From an uncultured Sphingorhabdus sp. (GTDB lineage Bacteria; Pseudomonadota; Alphaproteobacteria; Sphingomonadales; Sphingomonadaceae): a stretch of DNA of 64,000 nucleotides. Shown in pieces: positions 52,268 through 63,526 of this stretch. Each line of letters starts with the position of its first letter. Within the stretch, counting starts at the first letter, position 1. The notes below the pieces were generated by a model. It was not told where the DNA came from. It worked only from the letters and a program-made list of their open reading frames with translations, and ran no database searches. A program made the translations under genes and the position numbers. The stretch is taken from the NCBI GenBank assembly GCA_964597055.1, contig CAZQWC010000008.1, forward strand, positions 121,603 through 185,602, in the 5' to 3' direction.

Positions 52268-55264
52268 GTGCCAGGCACATTTTACGAGCAGCCGATCCTT
52301 AACTCGCCTTACAGCGAGCCGCGCTACCATCACCCCTTGGATGATCACGGGCAGCCGCTTGACCAACCCGCAGTTGAAGGGCGTCGGACATCCAAGTTTA
52401 TCGTTCCCGTCCCGAAATCGCGAAAAGTGGCAGCAGCCGCGCAGGCTTCGCTCGACCTCGAAACCTATACACCCAATAGCCTGATTAACGAGATCAGAGG
52501 CTATGTCGATGCTTGGCGCAAGACACCAAACCCGGCAGATTGGGGAGTCACGCCAACTACGGCCCGGCTTTTGGACTATTGGCGCAATCACAATTTTTCA
52601 TCTGTTCGCCCCTTCTTTTGTCAGGTCGAAGCAGTCGAAACGATTATCTGGCTAACCGAAGTCGCGCCGAAGCGAGCAGCTACGAAGGGTCTGCTAGATC
52701 AAATCCAGAGAGCCAATGACGAGGCAAATCCGGCGCTATTCCGACTAGCCATGAAGATGGCGACCGGCAGCGGCAAAACAACGGTCATGGCGATGCTGAT
52801 CGCATGGCAGACGGTTAACGCCGTACGGCGCGATTCGAAGCTATTTAGCCGCGCCTTCCTGATCGTTGCGCCGGGGATCACCATCAAAGACCGCCTGCGC
52901 GTCCTGATGCCAAGCGCGCCCGATAATTATTACGAAGAGCGCGAGCTAGTTCCGCCTGAAATGCTGAACGAAGTGAAGCGTGCTGAGATTGTGATCACCA
53001 ATTATCACGCCTTTCAGCACCGCGAGACCGGCCCGACCGGCAAAGTCGCGAAAGGCCTGCTTCAGGGTAACGACCCTGAGCCGATCCGCACCACCGAAAG
53101 TGACGGCGAAATGCTGCGCCGGGCTTGTGGCCATCTTCTCAATCACAAAAACGTCAATGTCATCAATGATGAGGCGCACCACTGCTATCGCCACAAGACC
53201 GGCGGCGAAGAGGAAAAGCTGACCGGCGACGACAAGAAGGAAGCCGAGGCTAACGAGGAAGCTGCCCGGCTGTGGATCAACGGCATCGAGGCATTGAAGC
53301 GCAAAGTCGGAGTGCGTGCCGTCCTTGATCTATCCGCCACACCTTTCTTCTTACGTGGCTCGGGCTATCCCGAAGGCTTCCTCTTCCCGTGGGTCGTTTC
53401 GGATTTCAGCCTGATGGATGCGATTGAATGCGGTATTGTCAAACTGCCGCGCGTTCCGGTCTCTGACAATCTCCCACAGACAGAGACACTTGTTTACCGC
53501 GATTTATGGAAACATGTCGGTAAACACCTGCCCAAAAGTGCCGCTGCTGCTGGCAAACTTGACCCCTCCAGCCTGCCCAACGAGTTGAAGACCGCACTTT
53601 ACGCACTCTACAGCCACTACAAAGAAACCTTTGAACTGTGGGATCGTGAGGGCATCGACGTGCCCCCAGTTTTCATCGTGGTTTGCCAGAATACCGCCAT
53701 TTCCAAGTTAGTGTTTGAATGGATCGCTGGCTTTGAACGCGACTTGGGCGAGGATGGCAGTGATCGCGCACGATTTGAGATCGGCAATCTTGAACTATTC
53801 AGCAATTACGATCCCACAGGCGGACGTTTCCCGCGCCCCCGAACGCTCCTGATCGACTCCCGCCAGATCGAAGCGGGCGACGCGCTCGACAAAAGTTTCC
53901 GCGACATGGCCGAAAGCGAAATCGAGCAATTCAAGCGCGAACTGAACCAGCGCGATGGCGCGGGTAGCGGCGACAAGGTGAGCGATGGAGAACTGCTCCG
54001 CGAAGTGATGAACACTGTTGGGCGCAAGGGTAAGCTGGGCGAGCAAATCCGTTGCGTCGTTTCGGTCTCAATGCTGACCGAGGGATGGGATACCAACACC
54101 GTAACGCACATCCTGGGCGTCCGCGCGTTCGGCACGCAATTGCTGTGTGAACAGGTCGTTGGGCGTGGCCTGCGTCGGCAGTCCTACGATCTCGATCCCG
54201 AAACCGGCCTGTTCCCGGTTGAATATGCCGACATTATGGGCATCCCGTTCGACTTCTCAGGCAAGCCGCAGACGGCAACGCCAATCAAGCCGCGCCCCGT
54301 CACGCGCGTTCACGCGATCAAAGAGCGTAGCGAGCTTGAGATCATCTTCCCGCGTATCAGCGGCTACCGTAAGGAATTGCCAGAAGAGCGGCTTGAGGCA
54401 GAGTTTGACGAAGAGTCCAAGCTGATCATCACCACAGCCGATATTGGGCCGACATCTGTCTTAATGGAGGGCATTGTTGGCCAAAGCACGCTGATCACAA
54501 CGCAGGTGCTGGAAAGCCTTCGCCCGTCGGAAATCAGCTTCAATCTCGGCAAATATTTACTCAACAATCATTTCCGCGACAATGATGGCCTCGCCAAGCG
54601 GCACTTGTTCCCGCAAATTCAGCGGATTGCCCGGCGCTGGATCGATGGCGGTTATCTGGTTTGCGCAGGCGTGCCGATTGGGGCGATCCTCTATGAAGAC
54701 CAACTCGCCCGCGCCGCGCAGAAGATCAACATTGCGCTGTCCCGAGCGAGCGACAGCCCGGTGAAGGCGGTGCTTGATCCTTACAATCCCAAGGGATCGA
54801 CGCGATTTGTCAACTTCATCACCTCGAAGGCGTGCTGGACGACCGGGGCGCGGCCTCCCAAAAGCCATATCAGCCATGTCGTGCTCGATAGCAGCTGGGA
54901 GGAGCAGCTGGCAGGCGTGCTGGAAAACCATCCGCGCGTCATCGCCTATGCCAAGAACCAGGCATTGGGATTTGAAGTGCCTTATCTGGATGGCGCGGTC
55001 TTGCGCCGCTACGTCCCCGATTTTCTGGTGCGGCTTGATGTCGGTCAGGCCGAGCCTTTGAACCTTGTGCTGGAGGTGAAGGGCTATCGCGGCGAGGATG
55101 CCAAGCTCAAGGCTCAAACGATGCGCGACCTGTGGGTGCCCGGCGTCAACCAGATGGGCGGCTTTGGCCGGTGGGCGTTTGCGGAATTTAGCGATTGGGC
55201 GGTGATGGAAGAGGATTTCGCGGCGCTGGTTGAGCGGTTGATTGGGAGTACGGGGCATGAGTGA
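52268..55264 (+). CDS. res: Type III restriction endonuclease Res subunit (BPTD_3080-like, res-before-mod subfamily)
   Basis: KMATGSGKT, NDEAHH, SVSMLTEGWD and C-terminal YVPDF...LEVKG PD-(D/E)xK nuclease. Confidence 0.93.
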   Translation: MPGTFYEQPILNSPYSEPRYHHPLDDHGQPLDQPAVEGRRTSKFIVPVPKSRKVAAAAQASLDLETYTPNSLINEIRGYVDAWRKTPNPADWGVTPTTARLLDYWRNHNFSSVRPFFCQVEAVETIIWLTEVAPKRAATKGLLDQIQRANDEANPALFRLAMKMATGSGKTTVMAMLIAWQTVNAVRRDSKLFSRAFLIVAPGITIKDRLRVLMPSAPDNYYEERELVPPEMLNEVKRAEIVITNYHAFQHRETGPTGKVAKGLLQGNDPEPIRTTESDGEMLRRACGHLLNHKNVNVINDEAHHCYRHKTGGEEEKLTGDDKKEAEANEEAARLWINGIEALKRKVGVRAVLDLSATPFFLRGSGYPEGFLFPWVVSDFSLMDAIECGIVKLPRVPVSDNLPQTETLVYRDLWKHVGKHLPKSAAAAGKLDPSSLPNELKTALYALYSHYKETFELWDREGIDVPPVFIVVCQNTAISKLVFEWIAGFERDLGEDGSDRARFEIGNLELFSNYDPTGGRFPRPRTLLIDSRQIEAGDALDKSFRDMAESEIEQFKRELNQRDGAGSGDKVSDGELLREVMNTVGRKGKLGEQIRCVVSVSMLTEGWDTNTVTHILGVRAFGTQLLCEQVVGRGLRRQSYDLDPETGLFPVEYADIMGIPFDFSGKPQTATPIKPRPVTRVHAIKERSELEIIFPRISGYRKELPEERLEAEFDEESKLIITTADIGPTSVLMEGIVGQSTLITTQVLESLRPSEISFNLGKYLLNNHFRDNDGLAKRHLFPQIQRIARRWIDGGYLVCAGVPIGAILYEDQLARAAQKINIALSRASDSPVKAVLDPYNPKGSTRFVNFITSKACWTTGARPPKSHISHVVLDSSWEEQLAGVLENHPRVIAYAKNQALGFEVPYLDGAVLRRYVPDFLVRLDVGQAEPLNLVLEVKGYRGEDAKLKAQTMRDLWVPGVNQMGGFGRWAFAEFSDWAVMEEDFAALVERLIGSTGHE

Positions 55265-55408: not shown

Positions 55409-56230
55409 ATGAATGGCGGCCCCATCCTTACCCGACAAATTGCAATCATGATCGACGGCGGTTTCTTTCTGCGCCGTGCGGAATCAATGGGTTTAATTCG
55501 GCGCATCGGTGATGTTGATACAATCGCCGCTCTGTTGCGGCGCATGTGCCGCCGTCATGTCCAGATGCTGACGGGGCAAGACGGCAAAAACTGGCACCGT
55601 CACATTTACCGCATATTTTATTATGACGCGCATCCCTATTCCGGCGTCGCCCACCATCCGCTTCACAATCAGCAATTCTTCTATGAAAAAAGCGACATGG
55701 CCGTATTCCGGCGCGCGCTGTTCGAACGATTGCGGCAAGAGCGCAACGTGGCGCTCCGCCTAGGCGAGGTTATCCGGCACGATGAATGGGTGATCCCCAC
55801 GCACAAGCTAAAGCCGCTTTTGCCTTCACGGGATTGGTTCGCCGGGATCGATTTTGACGCAGTGGACGATCAGGGCCGGATCACGCTTTCCGCCGAAGCA
55901 CTGGAAACGGCAAAGCGGCTGCAGGGCAAATGGCAGAATTTGCAGAACGACGATGTGTCACTAGATCTGCGTCAAAAGGGTGTTGATATGCGGATCGGGC
56001 TGGATATCGCTGCTCTCGCACTCAAAAGGTTCGTAAACACGATCATCCTTGTAACTGGCGACAGCGATTTTGTGCCTGCCGCCAAACTGGCCCGACGCGA
56101 AGGAATACAATTCATCCTCGATCCGCTTTGGCAACCGCGCAAGGTGGATGAATTGCTTGAACATATCGATGGCCTGCAATCCGGCCTCCCCAAACCCAGA
56201 CCACCCAAACCGGCAGGAAACCCCGCATAA
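55409..56230 (+). CDS. NYN-domain (LabA/DUF88, PIN-fold) ribonuclease
   Basis: IMIDGGFF, QKGVDMRIGLD and LVTGDSDFVPAAKLARREG motifs; stop overlaps the mod start (TAATG). Confidence 0.9.
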   Translation: MNGGPILTRQIAIMIDGGFFLRRAESMGLIRRIGDVDTIAALLRRMCRRHVQMLTGQDGKNWHRHIYRIFYYDAHPYSGVAHHPLHNQQFFYEKSDMAVFRRALFERLRQERNVALRLGEVIRHDEWVIPTHKLKPLLPSRDWFAGIDFDAVDDQGRITLSAEALETAKRLQGKWQNLQNDDVSLDLRQKGVDMRIGLDIAALALKRFVNTIILVTGDSDFVPAAKLARREGIQFILDPLWQPRKVDELLEHIDGLQSGLPKPRPPKPAGNPA

Positions 56231-59169
56231 TGGCCCGCGCCCCGAAATCGCCTAAATCCGTTGATGCGCTGAAGCATGATGCGGCATCGCGCCGAAATAT
56301 TCCTACAGCGGAGATGGAGAGTTTCTTCCTGCGGGAAGAGGATAATGCGCCGATGCCGCCGGTGGCTTATCCGCGCGCGCGGCCGTTGGCAGCGGGGGAG
56401 ACGCGGACGGAGGATGAGGTTTCCAGCCCCGAGCTGATCTGGAACGGCGCGAAGATTAAAATAACGCCCGCGCAGATGGAACAGCTTGCCACCACCGGCG
56501 AGCTGGAGCTGGGCGATGCGCAACTGGTGTGGCGGGGGAAGGATACGCAGGACTGGCAAGACCTGATCGTCAATGTGCCGCCGCTCTATATTCAGGAGAA
56601 GATCCACCCCAAGGCGATCATCGACGATCTGAAACGCCGGGCGGCGCAGAACAAGGAGGCGGCCAGCGCCGCGCCTGATCTGTTCGCCGATTTCAACGGT
56701 GTGCCGCCGGATGCGCGCGCGGAATTTTACCAGCACGACCAGCACTGGTCGAACCGGATGATCCTGGGCGACAGCCTTCAGGTGATGGCCAGCCTGGCCG
56801 AGCGCGAATCCTTACGCGGTAAGGTGCAGTGCATCTATTTCGATCCGCCCTACGGGATCAAATTCAACAGCAATTGGCAGGTATCGACGCAAAGCCGCGA
56901 CGTGAAGGACGGCAAGCAGGCCGACATCAGCCGCGAGCCCGAACAGGTGAAGGCGTTCCGCGATACCTGGAAGGACGGCATCCACTCCTACCTCACCTAC
57001 CTCCGCGACCGCCTGACCGTGATGCGCGACCTGCTGACCGACAGCGGCAGTATTTTTGTGCAGATTGGCGATGAAAATGTGCATCGGGTGCGCGCGGTGA
57101 TGGACGAGGTGTTTGGGGAAGAGAATTTCCGCTCCTGCATTTACTTTGCCACCACAGGAGGCCTTGCGACGAATGGGTTAAGCCGCATCGGGGATTACGT
57201 TCTTTGGTTTTCGAGGTCGGATCAGCCCAAAATTCGCCCGCTCTTTGTCGAGAAGAGGGGCGCCGATGACGATACAAGTGCCTACAAAAGTATCGAATTG
57301 TTGGACGGGACGCGCCGTCGTCTCACCGTAGCCGAACAGCAAAACACCGAATTGCTACCGGAGGGATCGAAGGTATTCCGCATTAGCGATTTATGTGGTC
57401 AGGGTCCGCCTAATCAGCCGACACCTTTCGATTTTGATGGCATCACATACAATCCGACCAAGAGCAGCCATTGGAAGCCAAACTACCCGAACGGGATGCG
57501 CCGTTTAGCCCGTAGCCAGAGATTTTACGGCACCGGAAAAACTCTAAACTACGTCCGCTATTTCGAAGATTACGCCGTGTCTCCATTCAATGATGTATGG
57601 CTAGACACCGGTCACTCGGGTTTCGCCTACGATAAGCTCTATGTCGTGCAAACTGCAACAAAAGTCATCGAACGCTGCATCCTGATGGCGACCGATCCCG
57701 GCGATCTCGTTCTCGATCCCACCTGCGGCTCTGGCACTACTGCCTATGTCGCCGAGCAATGGGGGCGGCGCTGGATCACGATGGACACCAGCCGGGTCGC
57801 GCTTGCGCTGGCCCGCACCCGCATCATGGCGGCGCGATACCCTTGGTATTTGCTCGCCGACAGCAAGGAAGGCCGCGCCAAGGAAGCCGCGCTCACTCAG
57901 CGCGTGCCCGCCGAAACGCCCGTCCATCACGATATCCGCCAAGGCTTCGTCTATGAACGCGTGCCGCACATCACACTGAAAAGCATCGCCAACAATCCGC
58001 TGATCGATGAGATCTGGGAGAAGTGGCAGGCGGTGCTTGAACCACTGCGGGCGGCGTTGAATGCGGCCTGCGGCGAGACGTGGGAAGAATGGCAAATTCC
58101 GCGTGAATTGCCCGCGACCACTCCGCCATCTGCCGCCGATCCTCACGCCAAATGGTGGGAGGCGCGCATCGCCCGCCAGCAGGAAATCGACGCCAGCATC
58201 GCCGCGCGCGCCGATGTGGAATATCTTTATGACAAGCCCTATCAGGACAATGCCCGCGTCCGCGTCGCGGGGCCGTTCACCGTCGAAAGCCTCTCCCCCC
58301 ACCGCGTCCTTCCCGCCAGCGAAGAGGAGCTTATCGAAGAGGTTGAGGCTGCCGAGGGCAAACGCCGCCGCGTCACCGGCGATGCGGTGGACAGCGATTT
58401 CGTGCCCAATGTGCTCGATTACCTCAAATCCGAAGGCGTGAAGCAGCAGGACAAGGGCGACCGCATCACCTTTGAAAGCCTGTCCCCCTGGCCCGGCCAC
58501 TGGATTGGCGCGCAGGGCGTTTTCATGGAGGGCTCGGAAGGCCAGCAGGTGGAGCGCCGCGCGGCCATATTGATCGGGCCGGAATTCGGCACGCTGGGCC
58601 GCGCCGACCTCGTTGCCGCCGCGCGTGAGGCCGCCGATGCGCGCTTCGACCTCGTCATCGCCTGCGCTTTCAACTTTGACGCCCATTCATCAGAACTGGG
58701 CAGCCTCGGGTCTTTGCGCATCCTGAAGGCGCGCATCAACCCCGACATGCAAATGTCCGGCGAGCTGAAGAATACCGGACGTGGAAACATGTTCATCGTC
58801 TTTGGCGAACCCGATGTGGAGATATTGGACGACGGCGGCGAAACCATCCGCGTGAAGGTGAACGGCGTCGATGTGTTCGACCCCAATACCGGCGATATCC
58901 GCAGCAACGACACCAAGGGCATCGCCGCATGGTTCATCGACACCGACTATAACGAAGAAAGCTTTTTCGTCCGCCACGCCTATTTCCTCGGCGCGAACGA
59001 TCCGTACAAATCACTGAAAACTGCGTTGAGGGCGGAGATTGATGAGGAGGCGTGGGCTACGCTCTATGCCGACACCTCCCGCCCGTTCGAGCGGCCAGCA
59101 GGCGGCCGGATTGCGGTGAAGGTGATCAATCACTTCGGCGATGAAGTGATGAAGGTGTTTGGGGTTTAG
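56230..59169 (+). CDS. mod: Type III RM Mod subunit (beta-class N6-adenine methyltransferase, long C-terminal extension)
   Basis: YFDPPYG (motif IV), then a variable TRD, then VLDPTCGSGTT (motif I); directly linked to Res. Confidence 0.93.
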   Translation: MARAPKSPKSVDALKHDAASRRNIPTAEMESFFLREEDNAPMPPVAYPRARPLAAGETRTEDEVSSPELIWNGAKIKITPAQMEQLATTGELELGDAQLVWRGKDTQDWQDLIVNVPPLYIQEKIHPKAIIDDLKRRAAQNKEAASAAPDLFADFNGVPPDARAEFYQHDQHWSNRMILGDSLQVMASLAERESLRGKVQCIYFDPPYGIKFNSNWQVSTQSRDVKDGKQADISREPEQVKAFRDTWKDGIHSYLTYLRDRLTVMRDLLTDSGSIFVQIGDENVHRVRAVMDEVFGEENFRSCIYFATTGGLATNGLSRIGDYVLWFSRSDQPKIRPLFVEKRGADDDTSAYKSIELLDGTRRRLTVAEQQNTELLPEGSKVFRISDLCGQGPPNQPTPFDFDGITYNPTKSSHWKPNYPNGMRRLARSQRFYGTGKTLNYVRYFEDYAVSPFNDVWLDTGHSGFAYDKLYVVQTATKVIERCILMATDPGDLVLDPTCGSGTTAYVAEQWGRRWITMDTSRVALALARTRIMAARYPWYLLADSKEGRAKEAALTQRVPAETPVHHDIRQGFVYERVPHITLKSIANNPLIDEIWEKWQAVLEPLRAALNAACGETWEEWQIPRELPATTPPSAADPHAKWWEARIARQQEIDASIAARADVEYLYDKPYQDNARVRVAGPFTVESLSPHRVLPASEEELIEEVEAAEGKRRRVTGDAVDSDFVPNVLDYLKSEGVKQQDKGDRITFESLSPWPGHWIGAQGVFMEGSEGQQVERRAAILIGPEFGTLGRADLVAAAREAADARFDLVIACAFNFDAHSSELGSLGSLRILKARINPDMQMSGELKNTGRGNMFIVFGEPDVEILDDGGETIRVKVNGVDVFDPNTGDIRSNDTKGIAAWFIDTDYNEESFFVRHAYFLGANDPYKSLKTALRAEIDEEAWATLYADTSRPFERPAGGRIAVKVINHFGDEVMKVFGV

Positions 59170-59178
59170 GGGGAAATC

Positions 59179-59796
59179 ATGCCGAAGACAGTCGAGTGGT
59201 ATCCTAAAATTCGGAACCAAAGCCTCGCCCTTGCGGTGCGTGAGGCTGGCTTTGATCTAACAATGTTTGATGAATATTCGGAAGCAACACAGACCGAAAT
59301 TCGGAAACGCGCTATCAAAATTGTTCTCCGAAACATTGCAGAGGAATTTGAGAACGTCACTGGCAAGGAGCTATCCGACATACGCCAAGGTGTGTACGTC
59401 ATTTGTGTTTCTAGTCCTTTTACAATCGGATACGAGTCGGGATGTAGCGAGGTAATTTACATCGGCATCGGTAAGATCGCATCGCGATTGGAATCTCATT
59501 TCAACAAAAGTCTTTTCGATTTTATGATGAGCGTTGCAGGCGCAAATTTCGACTTTTATCTGACCGAGCCAAAAGGCTCTCCTGGTGATTTGTACTACAA
59601 GCACATCGAATATATGCTTCTCGAAAAGTTTTGGGATAAGCATGATTGCTATCCGCTCCTGAATACCAACGCAGGCAGTCGCAAAGAATTTGACGAAATA
59701 GGGAAGGGTTGGGACAAGCCGCTTAAGGCATCGGGTAAAAAGCCGATTTGGGAAATTCGCGCGACCAAACATTGCGAATTTGCAAAGTTGGATTGA
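59179..59796 (+). CDS. GIY-YIG-like nuclease
   Basis: GVYVI...VIYIGIG...RLESH...IEYMLLE...PLLN matches the GIY-YIG R/E/N catalytic layout; visibly AT-richer. Confidence 0.7.
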   Translation: MPKTVEWYPKIRNQSLALAVREAGFDLTMFDEYSEATQTEIRKRAIKIVLRNIAEEFENVTGKELSDIRQGVYVICVSSPFTIGYESGCSEVIYIGIGKIASRLESHFNKSLFDFMMSVAGANFDFYLTEPKGSPGDLYYKHIEYMLLEKFWDKHDCYPLLNTNAGSRKEFDEIGKGWDKPLKASGKKPIWEIRATKHCEFAKLD

Positions 59797-61866
59797 ATGA
59801 ACTTCCTCATCGCCGACACCTTCACAGCATCCTTCAACCGCCTGTCAGGGCAGGATCAGAAGGCGGTGAAAGCGAGCGTGTTCGACCTGCAAATGGACCC
59901 AACGGGCAACGGGCTACAACTTCACCGGATTGATCAATCAAAAGATGCAAACTTCTGGTCGGCGCGGGTCAACCGCGATGTCCGGCTGATCGTCCACAAA
60001 ACCACAAGCTCGATGCTGGTTGCCTATGTTGATCATCATGACAAGGCCTATGCCTGGGCCGAACGCCGCCGGATTGAAGCGCATCCGAAAACCGGTGCGA
60101 TCCAGATCGTCGAAGTGCGCGAGTTGGTGGAGGAGGTTGCGCCACCCGAAACCTTCGATTTTGTCTTTCCGGCACAAACCGCCCCCGCAGCATCCGAAAG
60201 CCTGCGCCACTTTGCCTCGCTCAGCGATGAAGCCTTGCTGTCTGTTGGAGTGCCCGCGGATTGGTTGGCCGATGTCCGCGCGGCAAGCGAGGACGATTTC
60301 TTCACCCTCGCCGATCATTTGCCCGCAGAGGCAGCTGAGGCCCTTCTGGAATATGCGGATACGGGCAAGCTTGTCGTGCCCGCGCCGGTAGCGGCAGCCG
60401 ATCCCTATACCCACCCCGATGCACTGCGCCGCATCCGCCCGATTGCCGATCAGGTAGAGCTCGAACAGGCGCTGGCCTTCCCTTGGGAAAAATGGGGCGT
60501 TTTTCTGCACCCTTCGCAACGCGAAATTGTGGAACGGAGTTATTCCGGGCCAGCTCGTGTCGCCGGTTCGGCGGGTACCGGCAAGACCGTGGTCGCATTG
60601 CATCGCGCGGTCAGGCTTGCACGCGAGAACCCCGCCGCGCGTGTGTTGCTGGCCAGCTTTTCACAACCGCTTGCAGATGCCTTGACCAAAAAGGTGTCAG
60701 TGCTTGCGCCCGATACCGGCACCGTCGTTCCACGTATTACGACTGCTTCATTCCAAGGTATCGCAGATCAACTGCATCAGCTTGAACATGGCGTGCGGCC
60801 ACGCATTGCGTCTGAACCTGTCCTTCGCGAGCGGATAGCAGAAGCGGCAAAGTCGTTTCAGATAACCGGCTTTTCAGAACGCTTCCTGCTTTCCGAATGG
60901 ACCAACGTGATCGACGCGTGGGGGATCAGGACGGAGGGCGAGTATGTAGATGTGCAGCGCATGGGTCGCAAAGCCAGGTTGGGGCCGAAACAACGCGAGC
61001 GCCTTTGGCCCGTCTTTGACGCTGTTCGCCAAGCCTTGGCCGCCGAACGTTACACCACTTGGCCAGTTGTATTTTCAGACTTGGCCCAGCGCTTTGAGAG
61101 CAAAACTGCCAAGCCGTTTGACCATATCCTGATCGATGAAGCACAGGACCTAGGACCGTCAGAACTGCGTTTTTTCGCGGCCATTGCGCCCGACCATTCA
61201 GACGCGCTTTTTCTGGCTGGCGATTTGGGGCAACGCATTTTCCAGCATCCTTTTTCGTGGAAAGGTTTGGGCGTCGATGTGCGCGGACGGTCCTTCACAT
61301 TGAAAGTTTGTTATCGAACATCGCAGGAAATCCGCCAAGCTGCTGACGGATTGTTACCCACTGTGTTGCGGGACGTCGACGGCAATGAGGATGAACGGCG
61401 CGGGACAATTTCGGTGTTCAGCGGACCGGAACCTTATGTAAAAATCAATGCTTCGACCGGCGAGGAATCGGCCATCGTACGTGCCTTCATCGAGAAGGCT
61501 CTGGCGGACGGGATCAGCGCGAATGAGATTGGTATTTTTGTTCGATCTCCTGCCCAGGTTGAACGCGCGCTCACATGCGTTTCAGACATTGCAGGTCGGG
61601 AACAGATTACGGTGAATGTAATGCATCTCGCTAAAGGCCTGGAGTTTCGCGCGGTCGCAATAATGGCCTGTGATGAGGGCATCCTCCCCTTGGATGAACG
61701 GGTCGCAGAAGCCACTGACGATGCGGAACTGGACGACGTTTACGAGACCGAGCGCCGGTTGCTATATGTTGCCTGTACGCGGGCTCGAGAACGATTGATG
61801 GTGAGTGGGGTCGCCCCCGGATCGGAATACCTCAACGATCTAAATTCGGCACAAAACACCGACTAG
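59797..61866 (+). CDS. SF1 UvrD-like helicase with N-terminal RelE/ParE-like domain
   Basis: GSAGTGKT, IDEAQD, GDLGQRI, YRTS, HLAKGLEF and LYVACTRA; N-terminal about 88 aa (FTASFNRL...FWSARVNRDVRLIVH...YVDHHD). Confidence 0.88.
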   Translation: MNFLIADTFTASFNRLSGQDQKAVKASVFDLQMDPTGNGLQLHRIDQSKDANFWSARVNRDVRLIVHKTTSSMLVAYVDHHDKAYAWAERRRIEAHPKTGAIQIVEVRELVEEVAPPETFDFVFPAQTAPAASESLRHFASLSDEALLSVGVPADWLADVRAASEDDFFTLADHLPAEAAEALLEYADTGKLVVPAPVAAADPYTHPDALRRIRPIADQVELEQALAFPWEKWGVFLHPSQREIVERSYSGPARVAGSAGTGKTVVALHRAVRLARENPAARVLLASFSQPLADALTKKVSVLAPDTGTVVPRITTASFQGIADQLHQLEHGVRPRIASEPVLRERIAEAAKSFQITGFSERFLLSEWTNVIDAWGIRTEGEYVDVQRMGRKARLGPKQRERLWPVFDAVRQALAAERYTTWPVVFSDLAQRFESKTAKPFDHILIDEAQDLGPSELRFFAAIAPDHSDALFLAGDLGQRIFQHPFSWKGLGVDVRGRSFTLKVCYRTSQEIRQAADGLLPTVLRDVDGNEDERRGTISVFSGPEPYVKINASTGEESAIVRAFIEKALADGISANEIGIFVRSPAQVERALTCVSDIAGREQITVNVMHLAKGLEFRAVAIMACDEGILPLDERVAEATDDAELDDVYETERRLLYVACTRARERLMVSGVAPGSEYLNDLNSAQNTD

Positions 61867-62160: not shown

Positions 62161-63417
62161 TCAAATCACCCTAGGCCCCATCCGAGCAGTCCCTTTCCCA
62201 AGGTCCGGGCCTGGAAACTGTACCACTTCACCACCAGATCGAAGTTGATCTAGATAGTCGCTCCACCATTGATGCATCGCCACGCGTTCATCCCAATAGC
62301 GTCCCCGGTTGTATGTCGCGCGCACCGCGTTGCTATCCGCATGGGCCAGAGATCGTTCAATGGCATCGGGGTTCCACTTGCCGCTTTCGTTCAACAGCGT
62401 GGACGCCGTGGTGCGCCATCCGTGCGCTGTCATCTCGCTTGTTGTGTACCCCATCCGGCGCAGCGCCTGATTAATAGTGTTCTCGCTCATGGGCCGCAGC
62501 GATGTGTGAAATGCGGGAAATACGAAGCCGGTTGGGCCGGTCAGCGGATGCAAATCAGCGAGATACCCCATTACCTGTCGGGAGAGCGGAACCGAGTGAG
62601 GACGCCGCGCTTTCATCCTTCCTTGGGGGACAGTCCACACCGCCTTCTCGAAGTCAAATTCGTGCCATTCGGAAAGGCGCAGCTCGCCAGGTCGGGACAT
62701 TAGATGGGGCGCGATTTGCATCGCGATGCGAGTGATCGCCGAACCCGAATAAACATCGATAGCGCGCAGCAACTCGCCCACCGCCTTGGGCTCTATAATG
62801 GCTGCATGGTGCGTGACCTTGGGCGTTATTAGCGCGCCGGAAAGAACTACGGCGGGATCGTGTTCCGCCCTCGCCGTTGCAATTGCATAACGGAAAACCC
62901 GACTGGCAAATGAACGGCAACGTCGGGCGGTCTCATACTTGCCTTTAGCTTCCAATCGGCGCAGCGCAGCAAGCACTTCGATGGGTCGAATATCCGCAAC
63001 TGGCATCTTTGCGATGGGCTCCAGCTGCTGCAACAGCCAAACCGCTTTGGTGACGGTCACTTCCGCCTTTTGTTCGGCAATCATCTTGCGCTGGATATAT
63101 TCGCGCGCGACATCGCCAAACACATTGGCCGCGCTGATTGAAGCAATCAGGCGCTTGCGTTGACGCTCTGCGGAGGGATCAATGCCATCGTCCAACAGCC
63201 GCCGCGCGTCTTCTTGTTTGCGGCGGGCAGCAGAGAGCGACACCGCTGGATAGCGCCCGAGCGAGAACCGCTTTTCCTTGCCGCGAAAAGTATATTTGTA
63301 CCGCCACAGTTTGGAGCCGTTCGGCTCGACCTCGATATATAGTCCGCGCTGATCGACTTTCTTGTATCGTTTGTCGGCGGGCTTGAGCGAGCGAAGCATG
63401 GCATCAGTAAGCGGCAC
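62161..63417 (-). CDS. int: Tyrosine integrase, P4-like with N-terminal arm-DNA-binding domain
   Basis: GLYIEVEPNGSKLWRYKY, SRPGELR, HGWRTTAST, LAHAD and YNRGRY motifs; GTG start with SD AGGAG. Confidence 0.93.
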   Translation of the reverse strand: MPLTDAMLRSLKPADKRYKKVDQRGLYIEVEPNGSKLWRYKYTFRGKEKRFSLGRYPAVSLSAARRKQEDARRLLDDGIDPSAERQRKRLIASISAANVFGDVAREYIQRKMIAEQKAEVTVTKAVWLLQQLEPIAKMPVADIRPIEVLAALRRLEAKGKYETARRCRSFASRVFRYAIATARAEHDPAVVLSGALITPKVTHHAAIIEPKAVGELLRAIDVYSGSAITRIAMQIAPHLMSRPGELRLSEWHEFDFEKAVWTVPQGRMKARRPHSVPLSRQVMGYLADLHPLTGPTGFVFPAFHTSLRPMSENTINQALRRMGYTTSEMTAHGWRTTASTLLNESGKWNPDAIERSLAHADSNAVRATYNRGRYWDERVAMHQWWSDYLDQLRSGGEVVQFPGPDLGKGTARMGPRVI

Positions 63418-63475
63418 AATCGAACTCCTTCTTGGTCCGGGGTCGATCACGTATCGCCACAGCAAATTTATGTGC

Positions 63476-63526
63476 TGGGGCAACCGGTTCGGGTCACCTC
63501 AAACTGCCCCAAATTTCTGCCCCAAA
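63476..63526. repeat. Putative integrase arm-type sites, right end
   Basis: CTGCCCCAAA at 63504 and 63517 (13 bp apart) plus inverted TGGGGCAA at 63476. Confidence 0.6.

Follow-up and report, generated by a model that had tools for sequence, protein, structure and literature searches.

What a RelE-like domain does at the front of a DNA helicase, in a gene with no antitoxin beside it, was the question raised by the last of five same-strand genes in a stretch of 64,000 nucleotides from an uncultured Sphingorhabdus sp. (assembly GCA_964597055.1, contig CAZQWC010000008.1, positions 121,603 to 185,602 of the forward strand; this whole stretch is called the window, and positions are counted from its first letter). 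RelE-family ribonucleases (RNases) are known as free toxins kept in check by antitoxins and, in a single instance, as an effector activated by a CRISPR signal. The encoded protein, referred to as P0001, had been read in a preliminary description, made from the letters alone, as a fusion of a RelE-like domain with a superfamily 1 (SF1) helicase that would detect phage DNA or intermediates generated by Res and unleash translation arrest. In the analysis reported here, the gene proved to belong, as a conserved third member, to a Type III-like Res-Mod system, and the protein was assigned by sequence to the ArmD family, with a head for which RNase activity is plausible.

Predicted fold and domain architecture

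The gene and the parts of its product were located as follows (the evidence is given in parentheses).

59797..61866, + strand: whole gene of P0001, RelE-fold/SF1 helicase fusion assigned to the ArmD family, 689 amino acids (aa) (open reading frame (ORF) and translation; BLASTP to ArmD)
59797..60036, + strand: predicted RelE/YoeB-fold domain, residues 1-80 (AlphaFold2 (AF2), Foldseek, hhalign)
59923..59925, + strand: candidate general base His43 (invariant His in the P0001 clade, invariant Glu in the ArmD clade)
59965..59985, + strand: Arg57 to Arg63, strands β3 and β4 (aligned with YoeB Arg59 and Arg65)
60037..60051, + strand: His81-Asp82 to Tyr85 (His81 aligned with YoeB His83; all invariant in both clades)
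60037..60114, + strand: helix α3 (81-89) and β-hairpin (91-106) (AF2; motif HDxAYxWAxRR..HPxTGxxQ)
60115..60225, + strand: Pro/Ala-rich variable linker, residues 107-143 (low model confidence, no invariant column)
60226..60501, + strand: helical region, residues 144-235 (AF2; conserved residues; no family match)
60502..61863, + strand: UvrD/GajB-like SF1 ATPase core (Pfam, PADLOC GajB, invariant motifs, Foldseek)

Residues 1-125 were modelled with AF2 from 41 of the 2063 clusters of homologues, with a predicted local distance difference test (pLDDT) value of 88.1, and the secondary structure of the head was read as β1 (2-6), α1 (7-13), α2 (18-33), β2 (42-44), β3 (53-57), β4 (62-68) and β5 (72-80). 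When the model was compared with the PDB using Foldseek, 49 of the best 50 matches were toxins of the RelE/ParE superfamily or the RelE fusion Cami1, the exception being an insecticidal toxin at rank 47. YoeB (2a6r_C, E=3.2e-5) and RelE3 (3bpq_B, target template modelling (TM) score 0.78) were matched best, and YafQ, ParE, HigB and Cami1 (8phj/8phb) were also matched. Alignment of the head with E. coli YoeB by hhalign covered residues 51-81 (E=3e-5).

The fold prediction was relied on because the sequence-only searches of PDB and Pfam stayed below threshold. The Pfam family HigB-like_toxin was matched at E=0.029 with the whole of P0001 and at E=0.0015 with the domain alone (15-19 bits against a cut-off of 27), and phmmer or profile hmmsearch against the PDB remained at E=0.08-1.3; the phmmer match to YoeB (E=1.3) contained the local pairing of nFWSaRv..d.RLiv....sLlvAyv.hH with gFWSRRItEEHRLVYavtddsLLIAacrYH. 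A relative of P0001 (P0270) reached 31.4 bits with HigB-like_toxin, above the Pfam gathering cut-off of 27. On the AF2 model, the Foldseek result and this match of the relative, the RelE/YoeB fold of the N-terminal head was therefore regarded as confirmed at the level of predicted structure. Some proteins of the ArmD clade are labelled RelE in the JGI annotation, and a fold search of BFVD returned only weak RelE-like phage proteins. The fold is the same as that of the YoeB, YafQ and RelE toxins, and the motif nFWSxRv..d.RLiv...sLL.a.v.hH matches YoeB 53-83. Free RelE-type toxins, however, are about 85 aa long and end at the point where the head of P0001 is joined to about 600 further residues, and they come with a cognate antitoxin gene, which P0001 lacks.

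The full-length AlphaFold model of P0001 (pLDDT 85, predicted TM score 0.77) placed the linker, residues 107-143, at a pLDDT of about 50; with a mean pairwise identity of 0.36 and 0 invariant columns, these ~35 residues are presumably flexible. Mean pairwise identity was 0.80 in the helix-hairpin, 0.67 in the RelE fold and 0.55 in the SF1 core. The helix-hairpin (81-106), which is common to ArmD, is thus the best-conserved segment of the whole protein, 13 of its 26 columns being invariant, and together with the RelE fold it forms a conserved N-terminal unit of ~106 aa. The helical region (144-235), with invariant residues including G151, P153, W156, P176, E181, H206-P207-D208 and R211-R212, is also kept in ArmD according to the BLASTP alignment; no Pfam family was found for it, and residues 130-247 had no sequence relative in the PDB.

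In the core, the Pfam domains UvrD-helicase, UvrD_C and AAA_19 were detected. The Walker A motif GSAGTGKT (G257-T264, 60565-60588), motif II DEAQD (447-451, 61135-61149), GDxxQ and the motif VI TRAR were invariant in 65 full-length homologues, and Foldseek with the full-length model returned UvrD, PcrA and Rep at E about 1e-18. The best PADLOC family match of P0001 was GajB (E=1e-22), covering parts of the core only. Gabija GajB, too, is a UvrD-like SF1 ATPase that works in defence, but it lacks the RelE head, and no match to its partner GajA (OLD/TOPRIM) was found by PADLOC or Pfam among the five proteins of the operon. Of what had been read from the letters, the RelE-like N-terminal domain was thus borne out by the AF2 model and Foldseek, structure prediction being one of the checks that had been proposed for it; the quoted motifs are present (FWSARV 53-58, DVRLIV 61-66, YVDHHD 77-82), and the intact, linker-joined UvrD core holds in both its invariant motifs and its fold match. 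The estimate of ~88 aa for the RelE-like region fell short of the size of the conserved unit.

Relation to ArmD and conservation with Res and Mod

The gene armD was located via a published mutagenesis primer, and its sequence was taken from the non-pathogenic E. coli ATCC 8739. BLASTP of P0001 against this ArmD gave 32% identity over residues 5-670 (E=5e-98), an alignment that takes in the head with its helix-hairpin as well as the helical region and the core. Since P0001 appears homologous end to end with a described protein, the RelE-helicase fusion, which the preliminary description had treated as unknown, was already on record in 2025 in the form of ArmD, and P0001 is by sequence a member of the ArmD family. 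ArmD belongs to ARMADA type II (E. coli NCTC 12900 / EDL933 OI-172, WP_000218177.1; Bell et al. 2025, PMC12458937; Li et al. 2025, 10.1101/2025.09.22.677730), and its deletion or the Walker A substitution K266A abolished defence, whereas D454N weakened it (Bell et al., PMC12458937). It is called GajB-like by the ARMADA authors. The P0001 gene itself gave no blastn match in 5,426 E. coli genomes.

In both ArmD and P0001 a RelE-like head is followed by the HDxAYxWA helix-hairpin, a linker, the helical region and a GajB-like SF1 core; the motifs HDxAYxWA and HPxTGxxQ are invariant in both clades, and the Walker A lysine is K263 in P0001 and K266 in ArmD. Each is encoded by the last gene of a defence operon containing a methyltransferase and a helicase/nuclease, without an antitoxin. 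The partners differ: P0001 is accompanied by a Type III-like Res, in which ResIII is combined with an endonuclease, and by a Mod of the beta-class N6_N4 type, whereas BrxHII/Snf2-like ArmA, PglX-like ArmB and YprA/DUF1998 ArmC make up the ARMADA set. ArmA-ArmC, which precede armD in ARMADA II, do not stand upstream at the P0001 locus, and the genes of the ArmD clade follow a giant DEAD/Helicase_C/MZB (YprA-like) gene. The clades also differ in the general-base position (His in the P0001 clade, Glu in ArmD), in F53-W54 and H67, which are invariant in the P0001 clade and different in ArmD, and in the variable cargo slots ahead of the helicase gene in the P0001 clade. The Res-Mod-linked clade is thus a widespread relative of ArmD that is new in its Type III-like restriction context; apart from the two ARMADA preprints, literature searches turned up nothing on a RelE-UvrD fusion in Type III restriction-modification (RM) or on 'BPTD_3080', and no paper on this clade was found.

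The clade is very common. A query of 120 residues retrieved 2063 homologue clusters at 50% identity, and one-genome-per-species data, searched with a profile of the N-domain, yielded at least 577 loci, which come from Alpha-, Beta- and Gammaproteobacteria, Planctomycetota, Verrucomicrobiota (Akkermansia among them), Nitrospirota, Acidobacteriota, Dehalococcoidia and Bdellovibrionota. For neighbourhood analysis 80 loci were fetched, in all of which (80/80) the head was joined to the linker and SF1 core. Upstream DNA of 9 kb or more was available for 51 loci, and 48 of these carried homologues of Res and Mod ahead of the helicase gene and on its strand; in two of the remaining three Mod was present and Res lay beyond the edge, and the third (L014) was disrupted by an IS481-type element. 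IMG/VR served as an independent source, and 25 contigs from it showed the same Res-Mod-helicase order, whereas ten ArmD-like IMG/VR contigs (about 34% identity) were without it. The P0001-clade gene is hence a conserved last gene of Res-Mod operons, in genomes and in viral contigs, and the link to Res that the preliminary description had drawn is upheld.

The spacing between Mod and the helicase gene varied from a few bases up to 8.3 kb; it was at most 60 bp in 18 loci and above 1 kb in 32, and therefore a variable cargo slot lies between the two; a second variable slot lies between Res and Mod. In the window, the operon and its surroundings were as follows.

52268..55264, + strand: Res, SF2 (superfamily 2) helicase-endonuclease, at the head of the operon (1248 bits, against a cut-off of 800, with NCBIfam NF046055, the BPTD_3080 family restriction endonuclease; Pfam ResIII)
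55409..56230, + strand: NYN-domain protein in the variable Res/Mod slot (Pfam NYN, E=2.5e-8)
56230..59169, + strand: Mod, Type III-type DNA methyltransferase, 979 aa (PADLOC MTase_III PDLC03632, 1200 bits; Pfam N6_N4_Mtase)
59179..59796, + strand: 205-aa protein in the variable Mod/helicase slot (no Pfam, NCBIfam or PADLOC match)
62161-63483, convergent: ORF downstream of the P0001 gene

The ATG of P0001 begins at the first base after the stop of the 205-aa gene, with zero gap. A Mod and an SF2 helicase-nuclease Res stand here in one operon, as is expected of Type III restriction-modification and as in the classical systems EcoP15I and EcoP1I, where Mod is likewise paired with a Res that is an SF2 ATPase-nuclease. 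The operon departs from the classical type in its order (res, then mod), in the length of Mod (~980 aa), in the conserved third gene and in the cargo slots. PADLOC REase_III matched Res weakly, and the classical Type III Res model of NCBIfam gave 24.6 bits against a cut-off of 564; because this score is so far below the cut-off, the Res-Mod pair is, on sequence grounds, a distinct Type III-like family and not classical Type III.

The statement that no antitoxin gene accompanies the fusion stood up to an enlarged search. No ORF of at least 50 aa lies between the stop of P0001 (61866) and the next ORF (62161), no ORF recurred within 1.5 kb downstream in 67 related loci, and upstream only Mod recurred (68 loci). 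Because homologues of the 205-aa gene occupy the Mod/helicase slot in few loci (3/80: L020, L023 and L048, with an edge fragment in a fourth), its product is neither a conserved partner nor an antitoxin candidate. The GC content dips to 0.49 at this gene, below its neighbours. The P0001 sequence was present in sludge and wastewater metagenomes, and in no RNA sequencing run was it found.

Putative active site and role of the head

Residues were compared between 65 aligned full-length sequences of the P0001 clade and 119 of the ArmD clade. F9, Q21, S55, R57, R63, V78, H81, D82, A84, Y85, W87, A88, G100 and Q103 were invariant in both, and position 43 was His in 100% of the P0001 clade (n=65) and Glu in 100% of the ArmD clade (n=119). 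R57, R63 and H81 are paired by hhalign with R59, R65 and H83 of E. coli YoeB. In YoeB, Glu46 serves as general base and His83 as general acid, and the transition state is stabilised by Arg59 and Arg65; in YafQ, the Glu of YoeB is replaced as general base by His50 (PMC3814384). With a profile of both clades, the Glu of the ArmD clade was aligned with the Glu in 'sfEKL', a motif of S. aureus YoeB (E=0.078); by homology, this S. aureus residue is probably the catalytic one that corresponds to Glu46 of E. coli YoeB. Tyr85, one helical turn past His81, is a candidate for the base-stacking aromatic residue. The strict, clade-specific choice of His or Glu at position 43 is what a working acid-base site would predict, and it is the strongest argument for activity; from these residues, the head is plausibly an active tethered RNase.

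The mechanism towards which we lean, though by no means firmly, is that of an ArmD-family protein in a Res-Mod system whose RNase head is tethered, licensed by the motor and local in its action. Res-Mod would separate unmethylated invader DNA from self and act on the invader. The SF1 motor, presumably ATP-dependent like GajB and ArmD, would engage DNA ends or single-stranded intermediates, and this engagement would license the tethered head to cut RNA with a YoeB/YafQ-type acid-base set (His43, Arg57, Arg63 and His81, plus Tyr85). The RNA target would most likely be messenger RNA on ribosomes translating near the engaged DNA. An antitoxin would be unneeded if the head were inactive in cis, or active only when placed by the motor, and an RNase bound to a DNA motor would act locally and cause no cell-wide arrest. 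Local cleavage or strict inhibition in cis is favoured over cell-wide arrest because ARMADA, the system of the only studied relative, ArmD, is reported to be non-abortive (PMC12458937) and its carriers grow normally (10.1101/2025.09.22.677730). The effector role proposed earlier remains plausible from the invariant YoeB-type positions, and these two findings speak against the general arrest of translation that had been attached to it. Cami1 (CARF-RelE, an ancillary effector of type III CRISPR) likewise carries a RelE fold on a sensor domain and is an immune effector without an antitoxin; it is among the fold matches and offers an earlier case of a RelE fusion that works on ribosomes in defence. 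The likeness is in the fold only, the sensor of Cami1 being a CARF domain that binds cyclic oligoadenylate, with RelE at the C-terminus, whereas P0001 has a helicase, with RelE at the N-terminus.

Several points weigh against an active, motor-licensed RNase. ARMADA II is described as acting by a 'direct, non-abortive mechanism', and the mutants made in that study leave the RelE site of ArmD unmutated (PMC12458937); deletion of armD in EDL933 caused a milder defect than other arm mutations (Li et al., 10.1101/2025.09.22.677730). In P0001 itself the RelE-family sequence matches are sub-threshold, and the position of YoeB Tyr84 is occupied by Asp82. The chain runs beyond the catalytic C-terminus into the conserved helix-hairpin, which could reshape or bury the site, contribute to it, act as a lid on it or serve as an interface. 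The high conservation of the 5' part of the gene could also come partly from recombination at the cargo slot.

If the mechanism is true, restriction systems would contain a RelE head permanently wired to a DNA motor, a further means of controlling such a toxin that links immunity at the DNA and RNA levels, and the invariant residues H43, R57, R63, H81, Y85 and K263 allow it to be tested directly by mutation. The conserved Res-Mod-helicase frame with its cargo slots may be a useful marker for new defence genes. A bolder form, put forward tentatively and regarded as rather unlikely, would make these operons an unrecognised three-component restriction system spread across many phyla with a two-level attack, in which Res-Mod recognises and cuts the DNA and the DNA-bound motor brings the YoeB/YafQ-type RNase to the machinery of coupled transcription and translation on that DNA, where the messages of the invader are destroyed locally without cell death, the N-module being a portable 'tethered RNase' cassette for other sensors.

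The rival that survives best, which we find doubtful although arguable, takes the RelE-fold head as a binding or adaptor module through which the motor docks on the ribosome, on RNA polymerase, on nucleic acid or on the machinery of Res/Mod or ArmC, helicase or NTPase activity alone serving restriction, for example by end processing or GajB-like nucleotide hydrolysis. The peak of conservation, which lies in the helix-hairpin after the fold and not in the fold, is in keeping with such a module, as are the non-abortive nature of ARMADA, the occurrence of the N-module (residues 1 to about 226) on unrelated C-termini, and the fact that ParE_like was the commonest Pfam match among family members (11/22). 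ParE-type proteins are not RNases. An adaptor leaves unexplained, however, why acid-base residues that matter for catalysis only are invariant across two clades 34% identical, and why the clade-specific His/Glu swap at the general-base position mirrors YafQ and YoeB; moreover, Res/Mod and ArmA-C offer no obvious common partner protein.

Quite improbable in our judgement is a self-contained toxin with a cis-acting antitoxin, that is, an addiction or abortive-infection module that stabilises a mobile element and rides as a passenger at the end of an RM operon. The gene is indeed always the last, has variable cargo beside it and is carried by mobile or integrative elements; defence islands and phage-like contigs contain related N-modules without an RM operon, and the copy in L014 persists without Res/Mod. 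A passenger would not be expected to show Res-Mod synteny that is near-universal across phyla though the cargo turns over, ArmD is needed for defence by its own four-gene system, and carriers have no growth defect. A housekeeping repair helicase, orthologous to UvrD, Rep or PcrA and RelE-like by chance, agrees with the UvrD domains in Pfam and the structural matches to UvrD, PcrA and Rep, but was rejected as highly improbable and contradicted by scores of 48-55 bits with the NCBIfam equivalogs of UvrD, Rep and PcrA (cut-offs 911-1168), by the place of the gene in an RM operon and by a specific match to the RelE-toxin fold that is kept in more than 2000 clusters.

Contents of the slots and other carriers of the N-module

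The Res/Mod slot contained an NYN protein in the P0001 operon and in L011 and L057 (2/80 loci); elsewhere, a Bradyrhizobium locus had a PDDEXK_13/REase-ARP protein there, and a Blastomonas locus a 307-aa protein without assignment (L001, L002). Within the Mod/helicase slot, decayed copies of the 5' part of the helicase gene were found at L028:5880-6092, L067:5233-6015 and L069:1964-2113, the copy in L067 having a frameshift after about residue 70. Such copies inside the slot suggest that recombination swaps the cargo, with the conserved 5' end of the helicase gene as its anchor. A second copy of the N-domain or a decayed helicase start was looked for in the window, and none was found.

The N-module, consisting of the head, the helix-hairpin, the linker and the helical region, was also found on unrelated C-termini without a Pfam match (P0224, P0228, P0247, P0259, P0270, P0271 and P0252), with further ORFs in loci L088, L089 (5619-6995) and L090 (5654-7012); the break lies just before PWEKW..FLHPxQ, the start of the SF1 core, and several of the ORFs look complete. 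These fusions may represent a portable module or genes disrupted by insertion. The gene of P0271 has GmrSD_N, DUF499, DUF1016, AAA_15/DUF3696 and Gp49 genes as neighbours. On the ArmD side, in a Microbulbifer locus (L087:870-3522), two Fic-domain genes precede the ArmC-ArmD pair, in place of the ArmA and ArmB expected for ARMADA II.

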